Part shown: piece after piece, positions 15,344 through 31,620 of the stretch
How the letters are laid out: every line of letters begins with the position of its first letter
Position numbering within the stretch: the first letter of the stretch is position 1
Origin: Promethearchaeia archaeon
GTDB lineage: Archaea > Asgardarchaeota > Lokiarchaeia > Sigyniarchaeales > SOKP01
Length of the DNA: 64,000 bases
Reading direction: 5' to 3'
NCBI GenBank assembly: GCA_029856045.1
Contig: JAHQWG010000043.1
Span: forward strand, 32,001 to 96,000
Position numbers and translations under genes: made by a program
The notes under the pieces: generated by a model
Seen by the model: only the letters and a program-made list of their open reading frames with translations
What the model was told of the DNA's origin: nothing
Database searches by the model: none

Positions 15344-15814
15344 TCAATCGAATACCTTTTCTAATACAATTATTATAGGTTTGAAGCCCCCTCCTCTACA
15401 GATAACATCTTGTACTTTTTTATCTCCATCATATGCAAAATTAATTCTTATTCTATCAACACCCCATGATCTTAAGAGTTTAATAGCTCTTTCAGCCAAT
15501 ATCTTCCCTATACCTTTTCCAAGATATTCTTTCTTGGTTGCCCAACTTTCAAGATACCCAATATATTCACCAAGTGAAGATTTTTTAGCTTCTAATACTC
15601 CTAGAGCTACAACTAAACTATCAAATTCAGCAACTAATGTCATTCTCTTTAAATTGGGTTTAAATTGCCGTAATCCGGAAGATTCCTTCCATTTATCTTC
15701 ATTAAATCCCATATCATATAATTCTGATAATTCTTTTAAAATTTCAAGAGTTTCTTGATAATCAGATTTTCGATAATTTCGAATTATAATTTTATCTTCA
15801 TCCATAATCAACAC
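15344..15814 (-). CDS. GNAT family N-acetyltransferase
   Basis: IIIRNYRKSD and acetyl-CoA motif A YLGKGIGKIL. Confidence 0.85.
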   Translation of the reverse strand: MLIMDEDKIIIRNYRKSDYQETLEILKELSELYDMGFNEDKWKESSGLRQFKPNLKRMTLVAEFDSLVVALGVLEAKKSSLGEYIGYLESWATKKEYLGKGIGKILAERAIKLLRSWGVDRIRINFAYDGDKKVQDVICRGGGFKPIIIVLEKVFD

Positions 15815-15830
15815 TATATTTATTTAAATT

Positions 15831-16856
15831 TTACATATATTTTTTTATTTCAATTAGTTTTGAAAAAATTCTTAAATTTTTATCTTTTTGATTTATATTC
15901 AAAATATAAGAATCTATATGGGGATACAATGGAGCTACAAAGAGCAACTCCTCATGCGGATACCATTCATCAACAAATTCATTCAATATTTCTTTCTCAA
16001 AAAATTCTCTAACATGAGAAATAGTTACTTGTATAGAATGCATATTGGCTTCAGAAGAGTTTTCAATAACAACTTCTAATTCTTGACTGTTTTTTGAAAG
16101 AGTTATTTCTGAAATTTTAAAAGGATTAAAAGTTCCTTGTAAAATTTTGGCAGAAGCTGCTTTTTCAAATAGATTTACATCATCATACGGTGCCCCTTCA
16201 AATCCTTTTAATGAAGAAATATAGAATCCCTTTAGTGCTAAAAAAGACATAGCTTTCTGTTTTTTAATTGAATCAGATTTGCTGTCCATTAACACATTTC
16301 CAAAATATTTTAAGATGGTATTATGAATATCGAAATTTATATTTTGTTTAATTTCATCACTTTTTTTTATATTCTCTAACACCGATTTGTTTTTAATGAC
16401 TACACTTTTAGCAATTTCTCCTTCAATTAATTTCCATAGAACATTACCATAATTTTTTTGTATAATTTTTAAAAGCTTTTTGATTATATAACTTCCAAAA
16501 ATTTCAATTTCATTAGGTAGGGCTACGATAATAACAATAGTTTCAGGAGTTTCTTTCTTTAATCCAGCTCTTTGTTTTTTTCGTTCAGATTTCACTAAAA
16601 ATTTTTTTGCAGAGTATATTTTATTTTTATATTCTAGATCCACATGATCTAATACTTCTTGTTCTTTAAAATCTAAAAACCAAATTGAATGGATATTTAT
16701 TGGTCGCATTGCTTTTGGATTATATATTAATTTTTCATCTGGATAAGATAATAATGGCATATGACCTCTCATTTCATCGAAATAAAGTAAGAAGACTTCA
16801 CACAGATTCAAACCAGAAGAATCTTTTATGCTTTTATCGTCAAATATGTCAGCCAT
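15831..16856 (-). CDS. uDENN/longin-like N-terminal domain plus C-terminal Ig-like module
   Basis: VFLLYFDEMRGHMPLLSYP resembles the uDENN/longin start; ATG at 16856 preferred over TTG at 16901; C-terminus aligns with those of 27913..29406 and 30424..31620. Confidence 0.55.
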   Translation of the reverse strand: MADIFDDKSIKDSSGLNLCEVFLLYFDEMRGHMPLLSYPDEKLIYNPKAMRPINIHSIWFLDFKEQEVLDHVDLEYKNKIYSAKKFLVKSERKKQRAGLKKETPETIVIIVALPNEIEIFGSYIIKKLLKIIQKNYGNVLWKLIEGEIAKSVVIKNKSVLENIKKSDEIKQNINFDIHNTILKYFGNVLMDSKSDSIKKQKAMSFLALKGFYISSLKGFEGAPYDDVNLFEKAASAKILQGTFNPFKISEITLSKNSQELEVVIENSSEANMHSIQVTISHVREFFEKEILNEFVDEWYPHEELLFVAPLYPHIDSYILNINQKDKNLRIFSKLIEIKKYM

Positions 16857-17005
16857 AATTTTTTCAGAAAGATGAAAAATTAAATATATAACAAATCTCA
16901 AATTAACAAATGTAAAGATAAAAATAAAATTTATTGTATTAATAAAGAATATATTGAATTTCTAACATCTTTATTTTATTTTTTTTTTAATCTATTTTTT
17001 TCCAG

Positions 17006-17179
17006 CTAATCTTCTCTAAGCATATAATATCTCAAATCATCAAAATAGCATCTATCAATATATATCCCTTCTTTTAATATTGTTTCTAATATAAATCCAT
17101 ACTTCTTAGCACTATATGATAAAGGTTTGTTTGGGGCAATTACTCCTGTAAAAATTTTAATTCTATAGTTTAAATCTTT
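17006..17179 (-). pseudogene. C-terminal remnant of a RimJ/RimL-type GNAT gene
   Basis: Manual translation KDLNYRIKIFTGVIAPNKPLSYSAKKYGFILETILKEGIYIDRCYFDDLRYYMLRED*; no start codon, TAG at the position of the usual Trp. Confidence 0.6.
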
Positions 17180-17626
17180 CTAAATGTTGTTTAATGGTCC
17201 TAATTTCTTAATTTGATTTGTAAAAGTAGTTACTAATTCAGCAAATTTTTTCCCTTCACTTGCGGATATCCATTCAAGCCGAAATCTATCCTTTAATCCC
17301 AAATATTTTAAGATTTTCATTAACCGTTCAAATCTATCTTTTGTAAATTCATTCCCGCTAATATAGTGACAATCTCCTATATGACACCCAGTAACTAACA
17401 CACCATCTACATTATCCTTAAAAGATTTCAGAATAAAAGCTGGTTCAACTCGACCAGAACACATTACTCGAATTATTCTAATAGAGGCAGGATACTGAAA
17501 ACGAGATACTCCAGCCAAATCAGCTCCAGCATAGCTACACCAATTGCAGCAAAAACATACAATATTAGGTTTAAATTCCCTATCTTTTTTAACTTGTTTT
17601 TTATCTGATTTTTCTACGATTTTCAT
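17180..17626 (-). CDS. mvhD: MvhD [2Fe-2S] subunit, all-Cys paralog
   Basis: [38 protein letters not shown]. Confidence 0.93.
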
Positions 17627-17645
17627 ATTTTTTCATTTATTCTCA

Positions 17646-20600
17646 TTAATTTTTTAAATAAGCCTTAATCATCGCATTTATTTGTTTAAAACTAAAATGT
17701 GAAATAAATATGGCCGAATTAGGGCATTGAACACCACAGGTACCACATCCTTTACATAACGCAGAATTAATATTGGATTTTTTTAAACAAAGTGTATAAT
17801 CTTCAAATGTTTTTTCAACCTCAATTAATTCTATTGCGTTATATGGACAAACGTCAGCACATTTCCCGCAGCCGATGCAATAATCTTCAATTACCTCAGC
17901 AACAAGACCAGAAGTTTTCATTTCTTTAGCACTTAAAATCCTGATAGCTCTTCCAGCTGCACCATTTGCTTGAGCTATTGATTCTTGAATATTCTTAGGC
18001 CAATGAGCGCAACCACATAAAAAAACTCCATCTGTTGCAAAATCAATAGGTCTTAGTTTAACATGAGCTTCTAGAAAAAAACCACTTTGATCTTGCGGAA
18101 CTTTCAGCATTTTTGATAATTCTTTAAAATTTTCAGGTGCAATCATAGGTGTAGCTAAAATTATAAGATCGCCATAAAATTCTACTTCTCCTTTTAAATT
18201 GTGTTCGAATAACGTAATTTTATAATTAAATTTTCCATTTTTAGTTTTTGAAATTATAGGAAGTTTATCCAATGAATATCGTAAGAATAAAGCGTTTTTT
18301 CTTGAATCTCTATAAAATTCTTCATTTCCTTTTTTGGACATTTGAAGATCTCGATAAATTAAAATTAATGCCAAATCAGGTTTTAATTTCTTTAAGATAT
18401 TAATATTCTTTAATGCATTTGTACAACATATATTGGAACAATATGTTATACCCTCTTTTTGTCTGGAATTCACACATAAAATAAATGTAATACTTTTAAT
18501 ATTATCTAGCCATTCTATATTTTCTTTCCTTAATTTTTGCTCTAATTCAAGTTGTGTAATAACATTTTTTTCTTTTTTATAATTGTATATTGTTTCCGGT
18601 ATCAACTCATTCGCTCCAGTTGCAACAATTATTATTCCAACTTTTATATTATTTACTTTATTTCCTTTAGTGGTTATTATAACATCATAATTTCCAATAT
18701 ATCCCCTAATTTCCGTGATATTTGAATTCAAATAAATATTAATGTTTGAATGTGATTTTACTTTATTTACAAAAGGTTCTAAAAATTCTGAGGCTTTTTG
18801 ATATCCTGGGAAAATTTGATATAAATTATTTAAATTTCCACCAAGTTTAGATTCCTTTTCTACAAGATGGGTTGTAAACCCTTGTATTGCAATATTTAAT
18901 GTGGCTATTAAACCAGAAATGCCACCTCCGATTATTAATGCCTCTGGAGTAATTGATAGTTTTGATTCTTTTTGTGGTTTTAATAATCTCGATTTTGCAA
19001 CAGCCATTTCTATGAGGTCTTTGGCTTTCTTAGTTCCATCCACTTTTTGTTCCATATGTACCCAAGAACATTGATCTCGAATATTAACCATTTCAAAAAG
19101 ATATTTATTCAAACCCGCTTCTTCACATGTTTCTTGAAATAATTTTTCATGGGTTCTAGGCGTACAGGACGCAACTATAAATCTATTTAAATCATACTCA
19201 GCAATTAATTCCTTAATTCTAGTTTGGGAATCACTAGAACATGAATATAAATTATCTACTGCAACAGTCACATTAGGTAATGTTTTGATATATTCTAAAA
19301 CCTGGGGAACATCTACATATTTTCCAATATTTATTCCACAATGGCAAATCATAACACCTATGCAAGGTTCATCTTCTAAATTTATCTTTTTTTCAGGTAC
19401 AGATACTACCTTTTCTTTTAATAGAGTATTTCTCACTAGATATAGTAATGTTGAAACCTTATTTGCTACTCCACTTGCATCAGCAACTGTTTCAGGGATA
19501 TCTAATGGTCCTTGACAAAAACCACATAGAAAAATTCCTTCTTGTTCAGATGATAATTTATCATATAATGTCTTTTCTTTAAAAAACTTATATTTATCAA
19601 CGTTTATTCCTAATATTTTGGCAACCTTCTCAGAATCCTCAGATGGTACTAATGGTGTTGCTAAAACTACTAAATTTGCCCTTAAATCATGAAATTTCCC
19701 ATCATCGAGATCTTCATATTTTATAATTAAATCTTTAGTCTTAGGGTCTTCTACTATTTTGCTAATTTTTGAATTAAAATATTTAACCCCATACTCATCT
19801 TGTGCTCTTTGAGTATATTCATAAAAATTTTTCCCATATGCCCTCAAATCATGCCTAAAAATATAACATTCTGAAGAATTCGAATGTTCTTTAGTAATTA
19901 TTGCTTCTTTTGCTGTATACATACAACAGACACTAGAACAATAAGGAATTCCAATATGAAAATCTCTAGAACCAGCACATTGTATAAAAGCAATTTTATG
20001 GGGTTCTTTCTCATCTGATAATCTTAAAACGTGCCCCTCGAATGGACCAGAAGCACATAAAATCCTTTCATACTCTAAAGAGGTAATAACATTTTCATAT
20101 TTATAACCCCAATTATCTGGAAGTTTAGAAGCTAACATATCAAAACCAATAGCAACTATAATTGCCCCAACTTCTATTTGGACTTCTTCTGGTTTCTGCT
20201 CAAAATTAATCGCTTGGGCTTCACAGATTCTTTCACAAACTCTACATACCCCTTTATTCAAAAATAAGCACATATCTGAGTCTATTAAATAAACTGGAGG
20301 TACAGCTTGTGGAAAGGGGATATAAATAGATTTTCTTCTCCCCAAATTCATATCAAAAATATTTGGAGCCTCAATCTTAGGACATTTCGAGGCACAATCT
20401 CCACAACCCTTACATTTATCCTCATCCACATATCTGGGTTTTTTTAAAATTTTTATAAAAAAATGACCTGCATGACCTGATACTTCAATGACTTCTGAAT
20501 AAGTCATTAATTTAATATTTGGATTTCTAAAAACCTCAACCATTTTTGGAGCAAGAATACATAAAGAACAATCATTAGTAGGAAATGTTTTGTCTAATTG

Positions 20601-20771
20601 AGCCATACGTCCTCCAATTGAAGGAGTCTTTTCTACTAGAAATACTTTAAATCCCATTTCAGTTAAATCTAAAGAGGCTTGAATTCCTGCAATACCACCA
20701 CCAATTACTAAGGCTGCTCCGATTAAATCATCGGTTTGACTTTTTTGTGATGAGTTTTTACTTTTACTCAT
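17646..20771 (-). CDS. hdrA: Large HdrA-like flavoprotein with two FAD modules, all-Cys
   Basis: Two GGGIxG motifs, QLDKTFPTNDCSLC, internal CHCGINI / SCTPRTHE / NIRDQCSWVH, ferredoxin motifs; 1041 aa. Confidence 0.88.
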   Translation of the reverse strand: MSKSKNSSQKSQTDDLIGAALVIGGGIAGIQASLDLTEMGFKVFLVEKTPSIGGRMAQLDKTFPTNDCSLCILAPKMVEVFRNPNIKLMTYSEVIEVSGHAGHFFIKILKKPRYVDEDKCKGCGDCASKCPKIEAPNIFDMNLGRRKSIYIPFPQAVPPVYLIDSDMCLFLNKGVCRVCERICEAQAINFEQKPEEVQIEVGAIIVAIGFDMLASKLPDNWGYKYENVITSLEYERILCASGPFEGHVLRLSDEKEPHKIAFIQCAGSRDFHIGIPYCSSVCCMYTAKEAIITKEHSNSSECYIFRHDLRAYGKNFYEYTQRAQDEYGVKYFNSKISKIVEDPKTKDLIIKYEDLDDGKFHDLRANLVVLATPLVPSEDSEKVAKILGINVDKYKFFKEKTLYDKLSSEQEGIFLCGFCQGPLDIPETVADASGVANKVSTLLYLVRNTLLKEKVVSVPEKKINLEDEPCIGVMICHCGINIGKYVDVPQVLEYIKTLPNVTVAVDNLYSCSSDSQTRIKELIAEYDLNRFIVASCTPRTHEKLFQETCEEAGLNKYLFEMVNIRDQCSWVHMEQKVDGTKKAKDLIEMAVAKSRLLKPQKESKLSITPEALIIGGGISGLIATLNIAIQGFTTHLVEKESKLGGNLNNLYQIFPGYQKASEFLEPFVNKVKSHSNINIYLNSNITEIRGYIGNYDVIITTKGNKVNNIKVGIIIVATGANELIPETIYNYKKEKNVITQLELEQKLRKENIEWLDNIKSITFILCVNSRQKEGITYCSNICCTNALKNINILKKLKPDLALILIYRDLQMSKKGNEEFYRDSRKNALFLRYSLDKLPIISKTKNGKFNYKITLFEHNLKGEVEFYGDLIILATPMIAPENFKELSKMLKVPQDQSGFFLEAHVKLRPIDFATDGVFLCGCAHWPKNIQESIAQANGAAGRAIRILSAKEMKTSGLVAEVIEDYCIGCGKCADVCPYNAIELIEVEKTFEDYTLCLKKSNINSALCKGCGTCGVQCPNSAIFISHFSFKQINAMIKAYLKN

Positions 20772-21958
20772 TTTTTAGATACCTCCTTATTTTGTTGTGA
20801 GGGTATAACTTCAATAACGTTTTCCAAGAGATTTGATAAATCTATAACATTAATATCTTGGACAGTTTCTGTATCATTTTGAAGGCATCTAAAGTGAATT
20901 TCACATTTTGGACAAGTAGTGACTAAATTATCAGCAACATCTTTAGCTTCCAACATTCTATGATATCGAAGTGCTTTTGCTTTATCAGAACAATTTAGCC
21001 AACAACTTACTCCGCAACATAAAGAATTGGATTTATTGTGAACCATTTCATTATATACATAACCTACTTTTTCCAATTCTTTAAAAATATATCTTATTTT
21101 TTCATATATATTAAAAGATTTTGGTAAAAATCTACTTAATCTACATGGATCATGATAAGTTAATTTGAGTATTTTTGTGTTTTTCTTTTCCTTTTTAAAT
21201 TTAATTTTATTTTCCTTCAATTTCTCATAAAGATATTCAACAAGGTGTTTAACCTTAACATTAAAATTCTCAAACATCGAAGGATAATCAATTTTAAGAG
21301 TCCTATACCCTTCTGCACAAGAAGTTATTATTAAAGAAGCTCCACTTCTTTCAAAAGATTTAATATTATGGATTGCTAATTTTTTAAAAGCTTCGATTTT
21401 ACCTTGCCACAATAAATCATGACCACAACATTTTTCATCTTTCAACAAAACTATTGGTTCATTTTCAATTTTGCATAATATTTTTAAAGTATCTACAGCA
21501 TTATTCATTGACTCATCGAATTCATAACTAAAAAGGGGAGCACATCCTACAAAATATAAGATATTTCCCTTTTCTGATACCTCACACCCAGAAGGAACCC
21601 ACTCAAAAGTCTTTTCCGGAGTAATATTTTCTTTACTCATAATTTCCGAAAGAAGTGTATAGAATCCCTTATGAGCAATTTTAGGCATAATTCCGGCATC
21701 TAACATTTTATTTCTTGCATCACGTACTATTTCAGCAAAATTAACTTCATATGGACATTTTTCAAGGCAAGAATTGCAAGTTAAGCAATCCCAAAGCATT
21801 CCACTTTCAACAATTCGATCTTCAAAACCTTCAATGATCAGTTGTATTATCCTACTAGGAGTGTATTTTTGGATTCTTCCCATTTGGCAAATGCCACTAC
21901 ACATAGCACATTGATAGCAATTGTTAAGATATTCTCTTAATTTTCCTTTTATAATCAT
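20768..21958 (-). CDS. HdrD/GlpC-like Fe-S protein (HdrC-like N-terminus plus two CCG domains)
   Basis: CYQCAMCSGIC, CLTCNSCLEKCP, CCGH, YHDPC, CCGV, TCPKC. Confidence 0.88.
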   Translation of the reverse strand: MIIKGKLREYLNNCYQCAMCSGICQMGRIQKYTPSRIIQLIIEGFEDRIVESGMLWDCLTCNSCLEKCPYEVNFAEIVRDARNKMLDAGIMPKIAHKGFYTLLSEIMSKENITPEKTFEWVPSGCEVSEKGNILYFVGCAPLFSYEFDESMNNAVDTLKILCKIENEPIVLLKDEKCCGHDLLWQGKIEAFKKLAIHNIKSFERSGASLIITSCAEGYRTLKIDYPSMFENFNVKVKHLVEYLYEKLKENKIKFKKEKKNTKILKLTYHDPCRLSRFLPKSFNIYEKIRYIFKELEKVGYVYNEMVHNKSNSLCCGVSCWLNCSDKAKALRYHRMLEAKDVADNLVTTCPKCEIHFRCLQNDTETVQDINVIDLSNLLENVIEVIPSQQNKEVSKK

Positions 21959-21983
21959 AGAATTGTCAGAAATCTGAGTAATT

Positions 21984-23096
21984 TTAAAATTTAACTCCTA
22001 AGTTTTTTTGCGATAAATTATATCTATCTTCTTTATATTTTGAAAACTGAATTAATTTTTCTAACATTTTATCTCTTTTTCCTTCTAAATCCTCTAAAAC
22101 TTTTATATATCCCTCATTTATAGCGGATTTAACAATATTTGTTCCAAGTTTGGTTCTAGGTATAGTTGTTGTATATTTTTCAGGTGATGATAATCCACCA
22201 AATGAAATATCTGCATAAATATTAGTAAAATCATTACATGCATTACAAGCGGAACGAATATAATCTGATAATTCATTAAACGATATATGCTGAATAACTT
22301 CACTTCCTTTTAATTTTATTAACATATCTTCCTTAATATTTAATTTCTCAATCTCATCAATTTTTAAATTAAATTGAGTTTCAAATTTCTCTTTTTTATC
22401 TTTACCCATTGTAAAATTTCCATAACAAAATAATCCAAGAAGATATTTTATATTTTGAGAGGGGGTAACCCCCATTTCTTGCATGCATCTTATCGTATAA
22501 ATTTGGCAAGGCGTTCCTATAACAGCTAACTTTTTAAATTTATATCTATTTAATGCCATAATTGTAGGACTATAAGTACTAAAATTGGCAATTTCTGTTA
22601 CTTGTGAAGAAATATCAAAATGAGAACCTGCAGCTAAAATTAAATCATCTTTAGATTTTGCAATCATTGAATCTCTCGAAAATGGTCCCAACTTTTTTGA
22701 AACGATTGCTCCATCAATTAAATTATGTTCTAATAAATACAATAATATAGCAGATACTACTCCACCATCAGTTCCATTTTTTAAGAGATCTTTATCTAAC
22801 GCTTGAAATGAATATATCTTTTCATAATTGCCAAGTGGTTTGATATAATTATATTGATTATTTAAATCATTTTCTAATACTTTAGTTTGTGGACAAATAT
22901 GATAACATATTCCGCACTCTAAGCATTCATTTTCATTTATATATTGTGGTGGCAAATCTGGTTTAATAAAATCAATAATCTTATAATCAGCAGAACTACA
23001 AAAACTTACACACCCACCACATAATTGACAAATGCCTTTATCATGAACTTCTTTAATTAAATCTTTAAAATTTTTTATTGGTTTATCTTGACTCAT
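21984..23096 (-). CDS. FrhB/FpoF-like F420-dependent oxidoreductase subunit with 2[4Fe-4S] domain
   Basis: CQLCGGCVSFC, CLECGICYHICP, DGGVVS, GTPCQ, GLFC, CNACNDF, ADISFG. Confidence 0.88.
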   Translation of the reverse strand: MSQDKPIKNFKDLIKEVHDKGICQLCGGCVSFCSSADYKIIDFIKPDLPPQYINENECLECGICYHICPQTKVLENDLNNQYNYIKPLGNYEKIYSFQALDKDLLKNGTDGGVVSAILLYLLEHNLIDGAIVSKKLGPFSRDSMIAKSKDDLILAAGSHFDISSQVTEIANFSTYSPTIMALNRYKFKKLAVIGTPCQIYTIRCMQEMGVTPSQNIKYLLGLFCYGNFTMGKDKKEKFETQFNLKIDEIEKLNIKEDMLIKLKGSEVIQHISFNELSDYIRSACNACNDFTNIYADISFGGLSSPEKYTTTIPRTKLGTNIVKSAINEGYIKVLEDLEGKRDKMLEKLIQFSKYKEDRYNLSQKNLGVKF

Positions 23097-23113
23097 TTTT
23101 TAATAAAATTTTA

Positions 23114-24595
23114 TTATTTTTTTACATCGAATTCAATTTTTTTACATTTTGAATTTTTAATTCCTGAAATTTTCTTAACCAAACCGAATCCAGGTTTTAC
23201 TTCAGCTAAATCCTTAACTTCTACTAAATTGCCATTTATTAATTTATTAAATAAATCATTCCCAACTTTTGTTCTTGTAATAACTGAAGACCAGCCTGCA
23301 CTAGAACCTATTGAACCTACTGAAATATCTGCAAATTCGGACGTTAAATCACTACAATAATGGCATACATCTCTTGCTAAGGAAGTTACTTCTTTTAATG
23401 GAACTTTGGCTTCTTCTCCATTTTTATCTTTGATAATAAATTTTCCTCCACTAATGTCCATTTTTAAAATGTTCTCTAATTTCTTATTAAAAATTTCAGT
23501 GCTTATTTTGATAACATTATCATAGCTGAATGATTCCATGCAGAATAAACCAATAGTATATTTAATATTATTAAAAAAAGATGTTCCAATTGGATAAATA
23601 CTTCCTTTTTTGAGTGCTAACATCATACATGGAGTTCCAACGACTGCAATTTTATCAAATTTTTGTGCTTCATTCAAAATTGTTAAACTTGGAGAATTAG
23701 CATATTTTGTACCAGCGGTTTTATAAAGATCATCAACATTCTCAATTATAATAGGTTTTGGCCTCCAAATATCTTCAGAATGGGTTACTGCTATCGCAGC
23801 ATCAATTTCTTTTTCTTTTAGTAAATAATATAACAATGTTGTTATTATACCACCATCTTGGCATACTTCTTTAATTTCATCACTTTTTGTACTTGCAGTA
23901 TATGCATTTATATAATAATTACTTGCGGCACCATCCTTCAAATTAGGATTTAATTTATTTAAAACTGTAAAAATATGCTCAGATGGAAATGACCTCGGGC
24001 AAACAGAAAAACAAAGTCCGCATTTAATGCAAGTCTCAGAATCAATTTTAAGATCATCTGCAGTTACTGTTATTGAGCCAACTGGGCATATTGATGAACA
24101 ATAACCACAATTACAACAAAAATTATTCTCAAATACTAAAGACACTGGCTCAAAATAATTTTCTCGAAAAGAATTATCAAGGGATTTGGCTTGATATCGA
24201 ATAATTTCAATCTTAATTTCTTTATCTATCAAATTTCCCTCTTTATTTTTTACTTTTTTAATTTCTGTCTTTATTTCAATTAATTTTTCAACATAACCTT
24301 GTTGGGTTAAATATTCAACTGTTTGTACTAATTTTTTCTTATCATATTCCACTTTCTCCACTATTTCTTCAAGAGTAAGCAGAGGAAGCCCTATTAATTT
24401 TTTTAATATTAAATTTCTTTCTGTCTCAGCATCGAGAAGTGAATCTAAAATAAAATTAAAATCTTCCTCACTAAATCTTCCAAATTTTAAAATATCATCT
24501 TTTCCTTCATATAATGCACGAATTTGAAAATTACTTATAGCGTTATATGTAGATTCCATTAGATTTTTTAGATCAGTATTTTCTATAAGATTCAC
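23114..24595 (-). CDS. FrhB-like subunit with N-terminal helical/winged-helix extension and 2[4Fe-4S] domain
   Basis: CCNCGYCSSICP, CIKCGLCFSVCP, QDGG, AGTKY, GTPC, GLFCMESF, CHYCSD, ADISVG. Confidence 0.88.
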   Translation of the reverse strand: MNLIENTDLKNLMESTYNAISNFQIRALYEGKDDILKFGRFSEEDFNFILDSLLDAETERNLILKKLIGLPLLTLEEIVEKVEYDKKKLVQTVEYLTQQGYVEKLIEIKTEIKKVKNKEGNLIDKEIKIEIIRYQAKSLDNSFRENYFEPVSLVFENNFCCNCGYCSSICPVGSITVTADDLKIDSETCIKCGLCFSVCPRSFPSEHIFTVLNKLNPNLKDGAASNYYINAYTASTKSDEIKEVCQDGGIITTLLYYLLKEKEIDAAIAVTHSEDIWRPKPIIIENVDDLYKTAGTKYANSPSLTILNEAQKFDKIAVVGTPCMMLALKKGSIYPIGTSFFNNIKYTIGLFCMESFSYDNVIKISTEIFNKKLENILKMDISGGKFIIKDKNGEEAKVPLKEVTSLARDVCHYCSDLTSEFADISVGSIGSSAGWSSVITRTKVGNDLFNKLINGNLVEVKDLAEVKPGFGLVKKISGIKNSKCKKIEFDVKK

Positions 24596-24619
24596 CTTCC
24601 TAATTAAATTTTTTTTAAG

Positions 24620-24698
24620 CCCCCATATCCCTTGCAGGGATGTCCCAATAAAATTTCTTAATTTTAAGCTTTAATTTTAAAGATCATTCAAATGGGGG
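24620..24698 (-). ncRNA. Eukaryote-type (type II) SECIS element
   Basis: RNA reads CCCCCAU-UUGA-AUGAU-CUUUAAAAUU-AAA-G-CUUA-AAAU-UAAG-A-AAUUUUAUUG-GGAC-AUCCCUGCAAGGGAU-AUGGGGG. UGAU/GGAC core with tandem G.A pairs, 10-position helix II (two U.U), unpaired AAA, minihelix III, helix I CCCCCAU/AUGGGGG; directly 3' of two UGA-containing genes. Confidence 0.85.
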
Positions 24699-25155
24699 TT
24701 TTAGTTTTTAATTTTTTATCTGCATCTTTTATTTCTGCCTTAAAAACTGCTTGATCTGTTTTTAATGGGTTCAATCCCAATTTTTCTATTTTATTTACCA
24801 TATCTTCGACCGATTTTACAAATTTTACAGCTTCAGCTCCAGTGCAGTTATACATGTTTACTCGGTCTCCTCCCAAACCACGCCTATCTAGAATTCGCCT
24901 AACAAATTCGACATGTTTTGCAGCGATAAAGTTTCCAGTTTTAAATTCACATTGATTTTCTAGTCAGCCTACAACCATTACTCCATCGGCACCATTATTA
25001 ATTGCATAGATTAGGTGTTTTATATCAACTCTACCTGTACAGCGCAGACGAATAATTTTTACATTGGGACTATATTTCAATCTTGAAACACCAGCTAAAT
25101 CTGCAGCACTATAACCTCATTTATTACAAGCAAATGTAATGATATTCATTTTCAT
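24688..25155 (-). CDS. vhuD: Selenocysteine-containing MvhD/VhuD (155 aa, Sec13 and Sec64)
   Basis: MKMNIITFACNK-U-GYSAADLAG...RLRCTGRV...VVG-U-LENQC; TGA at 25119-25117 and 24966-24964 align to Cys in paralog 17180..17626. Confidence 0.92.
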
Positions 25156-25160
25156 ATATC

Positions 25161-25166
25161 TCACCT
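25161..25166 (-). promoter_or_regulatory. Shine-Dalgarno site of vhuD
   Basis: AGGTGA five bases upstream of the ATG at 25155. Confidence 0.65.
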
Positions 25167-25178
25167 GAATTTTTCGGT

Positions 25179-27122
25179 TTATGCATTTTCCTCCTTTACT
25201 AATGCTAAGACTTGATTAAATATTTGCTCATCTGTATAATATCTAATTTGTATTGCTTGAGTTGGACAACAAGTTGCACAGATTCCACATCCGTCACAAT
25301 TGATCTCATCGACCTCAGCAATTTTTCCTTCAGGTACAATAATAGCATTCTTTGGACAATTTTTTTCGCAGCGACAACAAGAAATACAATTTTCTTCATC
25401 AACAATCGCACATATTAATTCAAGCTCCGCTTCTCCCTTGGATGTTAATTCTGCAACCTTACTTGCGGTTGCTCTCGCTTGAGAAACCGAGTATGATATA
25501 TTTTTTGGTCCTTGCGCAAAACCACAAATATAAATCCCTAGATATTTTGTTTCTTGAGGACTTAAGCCAAAATGATGTTCAGTCAGGTATCCATTTGTAT
25601 CATAATCAATTCCAAGAACATCTGCTATTTGTTTCGTTCCTTTAGATGGTAATACTGCAGTTGATAAAACTACTAAGTCTGCATCAATTTTTATTATCTC
25701 ATCTGTTAATGAAGAATATACTCTTACCTTGAGATTTTTGGTTTCAGAATCCTCTATTAGTTCTGGAACTTTACCTCGAATAAAGTCAATACCTTTATCA
25801 CGAGTTCTCATATAGTATTCTTCAAAGTTCTTTTCAGATGCTCTTATATCAATGTAGCAGATGGTTATATGGCAATCAGGGATTTCTTCTTTAAGTAATT
25901 TAGCATTTTTTAAAGCGATCATGCAACACACACCAGAACAATACGCTCTTTCTGTATCTCTCGAGCCAACACATTGAATAAATAATATTTCTTTAGGTGT
26001 TTTTCCATCTGATGGTCTTTTTACATGGCCCATTGTTGGACCATTTGGTGCTAATATCCTTTCAAGCTGGATTTCGTTTATAACATTTTGATATTCTCCA
26101 TATCCATATTCTATAGGATTATATAAGTCCCAACCCGTTGCAACTATTATTGTACCCACTTCAATTTCGACATATTCAGGTTCTTGACTCAAATCAATTG
26201 CATGTGGCTCGCAAGCATCTACACAGGCATATCATTCAACGCAAGATTCTTTTTCAAGATCATAAACAAAAGGAATAGCTTGCCCAAAACATATATCGAT
26301 ACATTTTCTTGAACCTAAATTTTCTTGCCAATAATTTGGTATGTAAATTGGACATACTGGCGTACAATCTCCACAACCATTACACAAATCTTCTATAACA
26401 TATCTAGGTTTTTTCTTTATCGTAACTTCATAATTTCCAACATATCCTTCAACTTTATCAACTTCACTATAACTAATAATTTCAATATTTTCATTTCGAT
26501 TAGCTTCAAGCATTTTTGGACCAAGAATTCATATAGAACAATCATCAGTTGGAAATGTTCGATCTAACTGAGCCATTCTGCCCCCAATTGTAGTTTTACT
26601 CTCTATTAAATACACCCTTATTCCTTGATTTGCCAGATCTAATGCCGCATTTAATCCAGCGATTCCTCCACCAACTACCAAAGTAGCTTTTTTTATAGGA
26701 ATAATTTTTGTCGGTACTATTTCCAATCTTTTAGCCCTTTCATAACCTGCTCTGCTTAAAATCTTTGCTTTATTGGTTGCTGAAACTTCGTCTTCAGTAA
26801 TCCAAGAACATTGTTCTCTAATATTTACCATTTGAAAATAAAATTTACTAAGTCCTGCCCGTTCTAAAGACTCTCTATAAATCGGTTCATGAGTTCTAGG
26901 AGTTCAAGCTGCCGCTACAACCCGATTTATCTTTTTTTCTTTGATATCATCCATTATTAATTTCTGCCCTTGTTCAGTACATAAAAAACTAAAGATGCGA
27001 CTTGTTTCAATATTATCAAATTGTTTCATATACTCTGCAACTTCAGAACAATTAACTTTCGCAGAAATATTCAAGCCTCATTGACATGCATAATATCCAA
27101 TGCGTAAAATTTCTTTACTCAA
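25179..27122 (-). CDS. hdrA: Selenocysteine-containing HdrA (647 aa; Sec15, Sec73, Sec198, Sec297)
   Basis: Single frame from TTG 27122 to TAA 25179 with TGA at 27080, 26906, 26531 and 26234, in contexts CQ-U-GLNI, AA-U-TPRTHE, DDCSI-U-ILGPKM, CVE-U-YACVDAC; joins three ORF-track fragments without frameshift. Confidence 0.92.
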
Positions 27123-27315
27123 TTTTTTTTCACATCAACTCGTTTAATAATTTTTATTTTAAAATTTATACTATTAGATTAAAAAAATTCAAAATGCTCC
27201 AAATTAAAAAAATTTTTTATAATAATTTTCAGATTCAATAATTTTATATTTTGAAATTACCTTATTTAATAATTTTTATCTTAATGATTATATAAATTAT
27301 TCGATACTGACAGAA

Positions 27316-27779
27316 ATGGAAAATAAAATAATTAATTTTTACGAGAAACCTTAAGAAATTATTTTGAATTATACAATTTCGGTTATTATCCCCGATTTCC
27401 TAAATCTTTATATAAAATCATTTCCGAAATTGATAACTTCATTAATAATAATTTCGAAGACTAATAAAAAATCAAAAAAGAATTTTTAAATCCAAAAATA
27501 TATTTAAAAAAATGTATTATATTCCTAAATAAATTTAACAAAAAGAACAATACTTACAAAAGATAGACAATAGAACTATTAAGTAATTATTTCAATTCAT
27601 GTAATAGAGCAATTTTTAAAAGAGATGTGGTTAAACATTTGGGAGAAATTGATGATGAAAAAATTCTTAAGTATCTTTTAAAATATGTAGGAGATTATCA
27701 TAGTAAAGTCCGGCTTTTAATGACTAAAATGATAAAAAAAATTGAAGCAAGAATAGATAACAAACTCAATAATCAATAA
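27316..27779 (+). pseudogene. Degraded HEAT-repeat protein gene
   Basis: 3' part reads KRDVVKHLGEIDDEKILKYLLKYVGDYHSKVRLLMTKMIKKI (PBS-lyase HEAT pattern); the same frame has upstream TAA TAA and TAG stops and needs a frameshift to reach ATG 27316. Confidence 0.5.
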
Positions 27780-27912
27780 AATATCTTTTTTTTCCTCTGA
27801 TATTTTTCTAAAAAAAATGAATTGTTATTTAATTATAATAATTTTTTTTAAGGATTAAGGTTTTAAATAAGTATTTCTATTCAAATCTCAGTGTAAATAA
27901 AGGTTTTATAGA

Positions 27913-29406
27913 GTGAGTGAAGAAATAAATAAAGTAAAATCTGAATCTAAATATGAACATTCTTTTGAATATATAAGAAAAAAATTAGAAGGAAAAAAAG
28001 ATTCATTTGGAAAATTAGTAAAGGAAGTTATAAGAACAGGTGTTTGTACTCATTGTGGCACTTGTGCAGCGATTTGCAGTGCTCTTGAATGGGATCCAAT
28101 TTTAGAGGAACCAAAATTAATTGGAGTATGTTCTGGGTGTGGAATTTGTTATAATCAATGTCCAAGGACTATTACTAATCCCGAACAACTTGTTGGTCAT
28201 TTTAAAACAGGTTATGTTACAAAAAGTGGAATTCCTGAAGTTATTGGTGGTCAGGACGGAGGAACCGTTACGAGCTTATTATGTTATTTATTTGATGAAA
28301 ATTTAATTGATGGAGCAGTTGTTACTAAAAAAAATCCAAATAAACCATGGGTTCCGTTACCTCAACTTATTAATACAAAAGAAGAAGCTGTTGAAGCTGC
28401 TGGTTCTATTTATAGCCATTCACAAACAGTTGATTCTTTAATTGACGGGATTAGAAATAACATGGGCTCTATCGCATTTGTAGGAACTCCTTGCAACATA
28501 GATGCTGTGTTTAAAATGGAAAGTAGTCCACTTGGAATGTTAAAATATTTTATGAGAGCACATGTTTTTAAAATTGGATTATTTTGTATGGATTCATTTT
28601 CACATGAAGCATTATTACCATTTTTTGAGAAGGAGGGAATTAAATTAGCGGAAATAACAAAAATGGATATCAATAAAGGAAAATTTTATCTTTACAGAGG
28701 AGATACAGAAGTAAAATCCTATAAAATAAGGGAATTAGATAAATTTAAATCATCAAGTTGCAATTTTTGCACAGATTTAACTTCAGAAAATGCTGATATC
28801 TCGGTGGGTTCTGTTGGAAGTGGCCCGAAGAAAAACACAGTTTTAGCACGATCAGGTATAGGAGTAGAAATTATAGAGGATGCTATAAAAAAGGGATATT
28901 TATGTTCTGAACCATTTTCAGTGGAAAATTTAAATTCTGTCTTGTTCTTAGCAAGATTAAAGAAAGTATCTCAATATACAGTTCTTAAAAGGAAGGTTTT
29001 TATAGTTAAAGATATAGATAAAAAAGAACCATTTAAACAATCACCAGAATTGAAAGAGCAAGCTGAGATCGCAACGCCGTTTGGAACAAGAAAAATTTTA
29101 AAGGTTACTCAAAAACTGAATGAAAGTCAAACGGCTACTGCAATTACAATAGAAAATGTTATTGGATATCTTCTTGAAAATTTACAAATTAGGGTTGCTT
29201 TTGTGGAAGAACTATTTGAAAAACGACCGTGGACTACAACAATAAAAGAAATTTTTCCTTTTGAATCTATTCAGATTAATTATCCATTAGAAATTAAAGA
29301 TGGAGAACACGATCTTGGAGAAATAATTATAGATATTTCTGATTCACATAGAAAACTCTTTTTTAAGAAATATTCTCTTAAACCAAAAGAAAAAAAATCA
29401 AAATAA
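27913..29406 (+). CDS. FrhB-like F420 oxidoreductase with C-terminal Ig-like module
   Basis: CTHCGTCAAIC, CSGCGICYNQCP, QDGG, GTPC, GLFCMDSF, CNFCTD, ADISVG; about 140 extra C-terminal residues. Confidence 0.85.
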   Translation: MSEEINKVKSESKYEHSFEYIRKKLEGKKDSFGKLVKEVIRTGVCTHCGTCAAICSALEWDPILEEPKLIGVCSGCGICYNQCPRTITNPEQLVGHFKTGYVTKSGIPEVIGGQDGGTVTSLLCYLFDENLIDGAVVTKKNPNKPWVPLPQLINTKEEAVEAAGSIYSHSQTVDSLIDGIRNNMGSIAFVGTPCNIDAVFKMESSPLGMLKYFMRAHVFKIGLFCMDSFSHEALLPFFEKEGIKLAEITKMDINKGKFYLYRGDTEVKSYKIRELDKFKSSSCNFCTDLTSENADISVGSVGSGPKKNTVLARSGIGVEIIEDAIKKGYLCSEPFSVENLNSVLFLARLKKVSQYTVLKRKVFIVKDIDKKEPFKQSPELKEQAEIATPFGTRKILKVTQKLNESQTATAITIENVIGYLLENLQIRVAFVEELFEKRPWTTTIKEIFPFESIQINYPLEIKDGEHDLGEIIIDISDSHRKLFFKKYSLKPKEKKSK

Positions 29407-29484
29407 TAGATAAAAAAATTTTTCAACAAAATTTTTATTAAATCAAATTAAAAATTTAAATAAGAATAAACGAGATATAAAAAA

Positions 29485-30396
29485 ATGAAAATTAGTTTAA
29501 TAGGATTATCTGGTTGTGGAAAAACCTCTTTATATTCGGTAATATTCGCGGAAAAAACACCTGAAGAAACAAAGGGATTATCTCCAACGATACTCTATGA
29601 AACAAGAAGGCATCCCTTTTTAGGATTAGAAATATCAATTTTTGATTTTGGAGGTCAAGACCAATACATCAAAGAATATCTTGATAAGCCGAAAATATTC
29701 ATGGGCACGGATGTTCTCGTGCCTGTCGTAGATTTACACGATCCAAATTCTTTTGATAAATCAAAAAAGTATTTTGAAGATGTTTTAAAGTTATATAAAG
29801 ATAATTATCAGAAACCAAAAGTATGTCTATTTTATCATAAATATGATACTGAAGATTATCAAAAGGAACTTTTAGATACAAATATAATTAAAGCTAAAGA
29901 GTTTTTTTCGGACATGTTCAAAGATTATAACCCACAAACTTTCCTAACGAGTATCTATGATCAGCAAAATTTAACAAAGATTTTCAGAGATATATTAATG
30001 GGATCTTATTCAGAATTAAAGGGTCATATAGAAAAAGCGGAAAAGCACTTACAGGAGATAAATGCACGAATTATTATTTCCGATATATCAGGAAATGTTT
30101 TGGTTCATAATGTTCAAGGAGTTTCAAGCGGACTATCATTAAGGGCAGACTTAAGAGACTTTATCAGTTCTTGTAATGTAATTAGAGAGAATGTCTTTTT
30201 ATCTGATTCTGCAGAGTTTAAAGGAAATTCAGAAGAAGGTAAAGAGCTTCAACTATATATCTTTAAATACATATTGGCTGTTTTAATAATGAAATCGGAA
30301 AAGAAATTGGATCCTGAATCGAGTGAAAAGATAAGAGTTCTCCTCGAAGATATGAAATTATTTTCTGATATAATTGTTTCTATCCATTCTGAATAA
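29485..30396 (+). CDS. Rag/Gtr1-like small GTPase with C-terminal roadblock-like domain
   Basis: G1 GLSGCGKT, G2 SPTI, G3 DFGGQ, Rag-type G4 HKYD and G5 TSIYD; C-terminal IIISDISGNVL. Confidence 0.85.
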   Translation: MKISLIGLSGCGKTSLYSVIFAEKTPEETKGLSPTILYETRRHPFLGLEISIFDFGGQDQYIKEYLDKPKIFMGTDVLVPVVDLHDPNSFDKSKKYFEDVLKLYKDNYQKPKVCLFYHKYDTEDYQKELLDTNIIKAKEFFSDMFKDYNPQTFLTSIYDQQNLTKIFRDILMGSYSELKGHIEKAEKHLQEINARIIISDISGNVLVHNVQGVSSGLSLRADLRDFISSCNVIRENVFLSDSAEFKGNSEEGKELQLYIFKYILAVLIMKSEKKLDPESSEKIRVLLEDMKLFSDIIVSIHSE

Positions 30397-30423
30397 TTTT
30401 TTTAGAGCGATCAAACGATAAAA

Positions 30424-31620
30424 ATGAAATTAAGTCTTGTTAATGATGATAATATCATTTTGGGAGATTATCTTAGTGTAATTACTAAAATTTTTTTTGA
30501 AGAGACAACTGATATCTTGTGGGGAGGTATAAAATTAATTTCTAAAAACCCATGTAAAAGAGACTTAATTATAACCAAATCTGAATTATTCAATCAAGGT
30601 ACTTTTGAGCCTGGTGAATATATCAGAAATAGATCACAACTTATTAATCCCAAAGTAGTTCCAACAATTCCAGCAAGAAATATTCACTACTTAGTTAAAA
30701 TGACTTTAAGAATTAAAAGTCCTCTTAATTCTCAAAAAGAAATAGAAATTTTTAAAGAAAATCCCATTAAAATTCTTCCAAAAGGGAATATGTTTCAAAA
30801 TAGAACTCCCACCCCAATTAAATTAATTATGTCAGGGATGAATATTGAAATTTCTAAAGATATTTTTAAACCAGGCGAAACTATTAAGATTGATTATAAA
30901 ACAGATAATTTAACATTATTTCAAATAAGATTAAAACAGAAGACTAATTTAATCTGTATTTGTGAACCTTTTGGTGAACAATGTGGAAGTATTGAGGAAT
31001 TACCTCCAGTGATTGCGGGTGTAGCAAAAACATCCAAAACAGATCAAGGTTTTCTATTGATAAAACTTCCAAATCACGCTGAACCAAGTCATGAATATCT
31101 TTGGGAACCTCAAGAAAAAGATCAGTGGGGAATTAAATTTGGGGATTATTCTAAATGGTTTCTGGAGATAATAGGAAATAGGAAGAGAGAAGTTGGGGGA
31201 GATACAATCTCTTTTGAAATCCCAATTATTGTAATCCCTCAAAAGGAGCAAGAAATAGTCGATAATAGTTTATTTAGAGAAAGAGAAGAGGGTTTAGAAT
31301 TATTTGAACCCCCTCCTGCAATAAAAAAAGGTATGAATATAATTTCTATTGATATTAATAAAGATACTTCTTCAAGTACATTTATTTATAAATTACGAAT
31401 TAAAAATAATCTTAAAGATACTCTTAACGGTGTTACCATAGAAAATTCAGGTATTCAACAAGGTCTATTTGAGACTTATAAACATATGATGGGATTTAAT
31501 ACATGGTTACCAGGAGAAGAAAAATCAATTGAATATAAAACAAGACAAGAAATTGATACCTTAATTTCTACAATCGAAACAAATTCTCAAAAGCAAATTA
31601 GAATTCAAACAATATTATGA
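30424..31620 (+). CDS. Arrestin-fold (alpha-arrestin/Vps26-like) protein with C-terminal Ig-like module
   Basis: Two beta-sandwich repeats (ILGDYLSV...PGEY...VVPTI...IHYLVKMTL; KDIFKPGETIKI...IKLPNHAEPS...FEIPIIVI). Confidence 0.6.
   Translation: MKLSLVNDDNIILGDYLSVITKIFFEETTDILWGGIKLISKNPCKRDLIITKSELFNQGTFEPGEYIRNRSQLINPKVVPTIPARNIHYLVKMTLRIKSPLNSQKEIEIFKENPIKILPKGNMFQNRTPTPIKLIMSGMNIEISKDIFKPGETIKIDYKTDNLTLFQIRLKQKTNLICICEPFGEQCGSIEELPPVIAGVAKTSKTDQGFLLIKLPNHAEPSHEYLWEPQEKDQWGIKFGDYSKWFLEIIGNRKREVGGDTISFEIPIIVIPQKEQEIVDNSLFREREEGLELFEPPPAIKKGMNIISIDINKDTSSSTFIYKLRIKNNLKDTLNGVTIENSGIQQGLFETYKHMMGFNTWLPGEEKSIEYKTRQEIDTLISTIETNSQKQIRIQTIL

Follow-up and report, generated by a model that had tools for sequence, protein, structure and literature searches.

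An immunoglobulin-like tail domain of Asgard archaea shared by three proteins that are inherited together with a RagA-like GTPase

Why should a longin protein, a flavo-Fe-S enzyme and a protein of probable arrestin fold, all encoded in one archaeal locus, end in the same small domain? The locus lies in a 64,000-nucleotide stretch of contig JAHQWG010000043.1 (positions 32,001 to 96,000; Promethearchaeia archaeon, assembly GCA_029856045.1), hereafter the window, which corresponds to G000:C44:32001-96000. The genome measures 3.34 Mb and is 100% complete by markers, and its closest relatives carry the record name Promethearchaeota, which here means Lokiarchaeia. An original prediction, made from the letters alone, had proposed that three open reading frames of the window carry a common C-terminal immunoglobulin-like (Ig-like) module. 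These three reading frames, called A, B and C below, are indeed present at the positions given there. A fourth gene, G, lies between B and C and had been left out of the proposed partner set. In window coordinates, the elements are the following.

15831..16856, minus strand: gene A, 341 aa, a longin domain followed by a helical linker and the shared tail, with no Pfam match.
15840..16127, minus strand: shared tail of A, a seven-strand Ig-like sandwich from profile and model.
27913..29406, plus strand: gene B, 497 aa, a two-cluster ferredoxin, an FrhB-family flavin adenine dinucleotide (FAD)/[4Fe-4S] domain (Pfam) and the shared tail.
29086..29385, plus strand: shared tail of B, from profile comparison.
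29485..30396, plus strand: gene G, 303 aa, a RagA/Gtr1-like GTPase with a C-terminal extension and no tail.
30424..31620, plus strand: gene C, 398 aa, a probably arrestin/Vps26-like protein with the shared tail.
31324..31611, plus strand: shared tail of C, from profile comparison.

The three tails belong to one domain family. The C-termini of A and B align without gaps over 47 residues, 14 of which are identical, and the spacings between the conserved motifs (19 and 11 residues in A and B, 20 and 11 in C) are those originally described. When family alignments were compared profile to profile with hhalign, the A and B tails matched with a probability of 99.6% (E 7.7e-25), the A and C tails with 97.9% (E 4.2e-13) and the B and C tails with 98.4% (E 6.4e-15). 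These highly significant scores bear out the common C-terminal module and rule out chance similarity, even though identity between the tails of different carriers is 15-30%. An internal duplication inside C was ruled out by a control in which the tails were compared with the two presumed N-terminal beta-sandwich lobes of that protein (<4%). Among the 13,245 six-frame open reading frames of the genome, the A tail and the B tail are reciprocal best non-self matches (E about 0.015), and a joint tail profile finds exactly three carriers (E <1e-20), the next match standing at E 0.15. The tail profile recognises 129 proteins among 1.84 billion representatives: 46 longin, 17 arrestin and 6 FrhB proteins, 40 short fragments and 20 unclassified sequences. 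One of the latter scores as an A tail. The remaining 19, for the most part long proteins that contain repeats and look secreted, have weak summed scores, as generic Ig repeats would give. A generic Ig repeat, one of the two possible refutations named with the prediction, is ruled out by the three carriers in the genome and the small family among representatives, together with the conserved co-occurrence described below.

The tail comprises about 95 residues and is modelled with high confidence (predicted local distance difference test 94.8) as a seven-strand sandwich, in agreement with the Ig-like fold that had been proposed. In the model, strands 3 and 4 are long and connected by a short turn; across the three carrier families, most tails have an [ED/G]-hydrophobic-F-E motif at the predicted tip of this hairpin. 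Fold searches with the tail returned generic Ig sandwiches alone, the top Z of 10.0 belonging to glycosidase Ig domains. The adaptin-ear (GAE) domain of the BBSome subunit BBS1 (Z 9.4, root mean square deviation 3.1, 93 residues aligned) is tied with these glycosidase domains, and the Pfam family GAE_BBS1 gives weak matches in 3 of 76 tails; however, its own motif and the long strand 3-4 hairpin set the tail apart from GAE, from coat adaptor ears and from CARDB. Searches of Pfam and of PDB sequences yielded a specific family neither for the tail nor for A. The tail is a small, specific domain family without prior annotation and at most a distant relative of CARDB-type Ig domains. A tree of 105 columns separates the C tails and the NfnB tails (see below) as groups without placing their origin. 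As the prediction had supposed, a literature search, with most subscription papers beyond its reach, found no description of the domain or of the module to which it belongs.

The constant neighbour of the tailed genes is G. Its start lies 78 bp downstream of B, and C begins 27 bp downstream of G. The Pfam family Gtr1_RagA matches G with E 2e-26, and RagA and Gtr1 are among its closest relatives of solved structure (E about 2e-15 to 6e-15). Its catalytic motifs are intact: the P-loop, the switch I threonine, DxxGQ, HKxD and TSI (G1-G5) are conserved in about 90 orthologues, and some 110 conserved residues follow C-terminally to the G domain. Identity across classes amounts to 45-60%, and there is nearly always one copy per genome. 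A second G-type GTPase, 54% identical, was seen in this genus (G000:C8:3469-4365).

Carriers and GTPase are inherited together, usually along with a protein containing CBS domains. A tail is encoded in 175 of the 379 Asgard genomes, most commonly in three copies; three carriers are found in all 11 Jord/Freyarchaeia and in 16 of 22 Hodarchaeales, the carriers themselves differing. With a threshold of E<=1e-60, the genome families that hold a G orthologue (f1, f31, f4, f3, f32, f24, f10, f21 and one more) are the set in which the tail sits on several carriers. The lineages with both tail and G are Lokiarchaeia, Helarchaeota (Helarchaeales), Jord/Freyarchaeia and Hodarchaeales/Heimdallarchaeota. 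Neither a G orthologue nor a tail was found in the searched genomes of f2, f9, f14, f16 and f29, and three single-contig f2 genomes tested gave no tail; f7 yielded no G orthologue and one weak tail match only.

Gene order points the same way. Outside the family of the present genome, the five genes A, CBS, B, G and C are packed into 6-12 kb; this holds for Jord/Freyarchaeia as well as for Helarchaeales-type and other Lokiarchaeial families. A CBS-pair gene stands at most 700 bp from most primary A genes, and in the two Helarchaeota families f3 and f32 four CBS domains are fused behind the A tail; this partner, seen in other lineages, could not have been noticed from the window. In 57 of the 58 Lokiarchaeial loci holding both genes, G follows immediately after B. 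Hodarchaeales loci contain no C and have instead a second longin-tail paralogue, A'. In six of them the tail is carried not by an FrhB protein but by an NfnB/SudA-type enzyme, which occupies the same position beside the CBS gene and A and ends a nuoE/nuoF/nuoG-like/nfnA run; in five of these six genomes (83-96% complete) a search found no B orthologue. Three further observations concern these loci. Two Hodarchaeales contigs (L124:3-3548 and L157:13775-17500) contain, about 3 kb from G, an extra GTPase-like run: besides a second gene of Rag type it includes two or three neighbours of divergent sequence. In most Jord/Freyarchaeia loci examined (L112:9062-11080, L113:8141-10750), A and B are separated by a gene for a C25 (gingipain-type) peptidase. 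Finally, a contig filed under Bacteroides sp. SM23_62_1 (L133) holds a Hodarchaeales locus with 93% identity, probably as a result of a binning error.

What the carriers are can be read in part from their remaining domains. Two parts of A matter here.

16287..16808, minus strand: longin domain of A, residues 17-190, from the model, with an FDExxGH turn between strands 1 and 2.
16569..16583, minus strand: RxKxRxG loop of A between strands 4 and 5, containing R92 and R96, a candidate arginine finger.

A had been described as uDENN-like, which holds for its longin fold only: there is no DENN domain, and in the model a helical linker with the seven-strand sandwich takes the place of DENN or NPRL2-type C-terminal domains. 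The fold matches of the longin (VIA) include the FLCN complex (Z 10.6, root mean square deviation 3.3, 143 residues aligned), Sec22 (Z 10.5), a GATOR1 subunit (Z 10.2) and VAMP7, all tied at about 10. An in-frame TTG is present upstream of the gene at 16901, and the Atlas record begins at residue 16 of that longer reading frame, which is the ATG at 16856 used for the gene coordinates. Among A-type proteins R92 is conserved in 64 of 64 and R96 in 63 of 64. G31 is invariant and is followed by H (55 of 64), Q (8) or N (1), so that the GP motif before strand 2 is absent. Since it has neither a DENN domain nor a GP motif, A was rejected as a member of the DENN or folliculin families, and it is not an NPRL2 either; a search for the NPR2 family in 251 Asgard genomes gave nothing above cut-off. 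In Asgard FLCN-like proteins an ARG motif sits in the same strand 4-5 loop as the arginines of A, in an alignment that is non-significant, and an attempt to map the A arginine onto FLCN through these proteins failed (profile probability 1.5-4%).

The longin paralogues deserve mention in their own right. In Hodarchaeales, A' combines a longin domain and a tail but has no arginine loop, and its sequences branch as a separate clade. A tandem second copy of A, with a degenerate arginine loop (L097:2669-3676, L057:944-1909), is found in some Lokiarchaeia and echoes A'. An Asgard FLCN-like longin of canonical type, in which both the GP and the ARG motif are present (G000:C3:14902-16329), is also encoded in the present genome; it is unlinked to the module, and its family has matches largely in the same lineages as the module, plus f29.

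In B, the FrhB_N and FrhB_C domains are present with four [4Fe-4S] cysteines and the DGG motif. All 12 cluster cysteines (one of them in 109 of 110) and DGG are retained in 110 orthologues. Its best solved relatives score E 9e-46 and 3e-41, and B falls under the NCBIfam cut-offs for FrhB and FpoF. With their tails removed, the tailed FrhB proteins form a single clade (support 99) that largely tracks the genome families. Use of F420 by B is plausible, given an intact FrhB family and cofD and cofE family genes in the genome. Some members of the FrhB family take donors other than F420. C is probably arrestin/Vps26-like: against arrestin/Vps26 clusters its Atlas features score 0.84-0.87, all ten matches belonging to one family or clan, and Arrestin_C matches 17 of 26 C members below cut-off (best E 7e-5). 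Four invariant cysteines (C44, C178, C180 and C187) lie at 30553-30984 of the plus strand, and they form a possible metal or thiol-switch site.

We favour, with moderate confidence, the view that the tail is an Asgard-restricted docking domain that ties the three proteins into a regulatory module around the Rag-like GTPase G. A docking role, which we infer, is favoured by carrier swapping at one locus. The tail behaves like a docking tag because it keeps to one neighbourhood, is maintained at about three copies despite the change of carriers and has moved between flavo-Fe-S enzymes. As the GTPase is the one constant gene without a tail, an assembly of regulators for G would be the simplest reading. 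The tails might gather the partners either by tail-to-tail assembly of the three carriers or by each binding a common surface of G or of the CBS protein. A complex prediction with the three tails, each with its alignment, scored 0.02 against a mark of 0.32, a value that weighs neither for nor against binding. Nothing found here speaks specifically for the trafficking role suggested earlier, and the context points to GTPase signalling.

Alternatively, each tail could be an independent effector domain, A, B and C binding G singly according to its nucleotide state; the switch would then control the enzyme rather than read it, and no tail-to-tail complex would form. Small GTPases are indeed bound by the Ig-like sandwiches of PDE-delta, UNC119 and RhoGDI, the tails of all carriers retain one motif, and G is the one untailed gene that never leaves the module. 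However, we regard this explanation as unlikely, for it leaves unexplained why about three carriers persist although they are not always the same ones, and in the genomes of f15, where B is tailed, no G orthologue was found. The same f15 genomes, in which the tail is retained on B alone, speak for a localisation or ligand-binding tag (for a membrane, a lipid, a scaffold or a metabolite) that directs proteins to the same place with no direct contact between them, as does the weak similarity of the tail to CARDB-type and adaptin-ear appendages. Yet such a general tag should be found on more proteins than those of one gene neighbourhood, to which the tail is confined, and we hold this reading to be quite improbable. 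Least probable, in our opinion, is a remnant left by local, exon-like shuffling within an ancient cluster, with separate structural roles and a purely historical linkage: the cluster is loosened in Lokiarchaeia and tails of different carriers now share 15-30% identity, but the tail moved onto a different flavoenzyme at the same locus, all the parts are missing together in whole families, and the key motif residues are conserved across carriers.

Returning to the docking module around G, its working can be sketched conditionally. A would be a longin regulator of G, most likely a GTPase-activating protein (GAP) using an arginine of the strand 4-5 loop, or else a platform. B may report the redox state of the hydride carrier, namely F420, or NAD(P)H where the NfnB/SudA-type enzyme replaces B. 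CBS pairs are adenylate sensors, and the CBS protein or the fused CBS domains may report adenylate charge. C, which may have a metal or thiol site, would serve as an adaptor or effector of arrestin type, and control between switch and enzyme could run either way. In its most specific form, an ancestral Asgard checkpoint for energy and redox state, assembled through the private docking domain, in which the flavo-Fe-S enzyme and the CBS protein set an arginine-finger longin GAP on the RagA-like GTPase, with an arrestin-like output, this scheme is tentative and we think it rather doubtful.

Several facts weigh against this assignment of roles and against the module as such. In most genomes of this Lokiarchaeial family A stands 12-65 kb from B or G, unrelated genes often separate C from G, and no CBS orthologue was found in the present genome. 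The tail can persist without A, C and G, as f15 retains tailed B only. As for A, it lacks the GP motif of the GAP longins, its profile reaches a probability of 4% against the Asgard FLCN-like family, and its fold score is equally high to the non-GAP longins Sec22 and VAMP7; its basic loop could bind membranes or nucleic acid rather than GTP. Moreover, related genomes are not independent, so that co-occurrence overstates the support.

How does this module compare with known systems? In eukaryotes, Rag/Gtr GTPases are regulated by longin GAPs (GATOR1 NPRL2-NPRL3 and FLCN-FNIP; C9orf72-SMCR8 for Arf); the longins work in pairs of a catalytic and a non-catalytic member and act on Rags (PMC8213707; PMC12290439). 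A RagA/Gtr1-like GTPase and a longin protein with a conserved loop arginine are common to both, and the pair of longin paralogues of Hodarchaeales, only one of which has the arginine loop, recalls the catalytic and non-catalytic pairs. In contrast, A is without a DENN or winged-helix C-terminus and without the GP motif, the Asgard module has a single Rag-type gene, and its partners are a flavo-Fe-S enzyme, a CBS protein and an arrestin-like protein, linked by a private domain. Asgards have no known TOR kinase (10.1101/2020.10.19.343400). Within Asgards, Liu et al. described an operon with roadblock, a Rab-like GTPase and a DENN protein, as well as NPRL2-like longins (10.1101/2020.10.19.343400), and a GP motif before strand 2 marks the FLCN/SMCR8-type longins (PMC12290439). 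There too, longin-type regulators are joined with small GTPases; however, neither set has the tail, FrhB or arrestin, and the GP-motif longins are a separate family. B shares the ferredoxin, FrhB_N/FrhB_C and all cluster cysteines with the F420 modules of FrhB, FpoF and Fsr-N, from which it differs in having an Ig-like tail, forming its own clade and preceding a GTPase rather than standing in an enzyme operon.

Asgards encode dozens of Rag-like GTPases and longins, and assigning a GTPase to its regulators has been described as hard, since joint operons are rare for these genes (PMC10933270). Here a highly conserved RagA-like GTPase has a defined set of partners, to which gene order and a private domain point independently of each other. 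The folds are known ones in a combination for which no description was found, and together they constitute a real Asgard domain family and a conserved gene module, which provide a testable set of partners, across several Asgard classes, for a relative of the eukaryotic nutrient switch in archaea. Five small soluble proteins make it possible to test what Asgard Rag GTPases sense, and also whether Rag nutrient signalling began as redox or energy sensing before TOR. If the redox-gated GAP version were true, Hodarchaeales would possess a functioning prokaryotic equivalent of the GATOR1/FLCN-Rag hub.

The surroundings of the module in the window comprise two further features.

15344..15814, minus strand: GNAT acetyltransferase gene, 16 bp downstream of A.
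17180..27110, minus strand: untailed hdr context with hdrA (a selenoprotein), two untailed FrhB paralogues, an hdrD-like gene, a large hdrA and mvhD.

In this Lokiarchaeial family each of the primary A genes examined has a GNAT gene beside it, at the place taken by the CBS protein in other lineages. As first described, A and B point away from each other on either side of the hdr genes; they are not a divergent promoter pair, because A is the 3' end of the minus-strand hdr run. The hdr cluster stands between A and B in this genus and in at least one other Lokiarchaeial contig (L057). A scan for bacterial-type promoters gave fewer sites than shuffled sequences. With TGA read as selenocysteine, one hdrA (25179-27110, minus strand) continues across four in-frame TGA codons, which fall at cysteine-like positions; HdrA selenoproteins have been reported for Lokiarchaeota (PMC4989117). 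Upstream of B, a 49-aa remnant (27618-27764, plus strand) shows 49% identity to a HEAT-repeat-like gene of about 530 aa that stands upstream of B in most related Lokiarchaeia.

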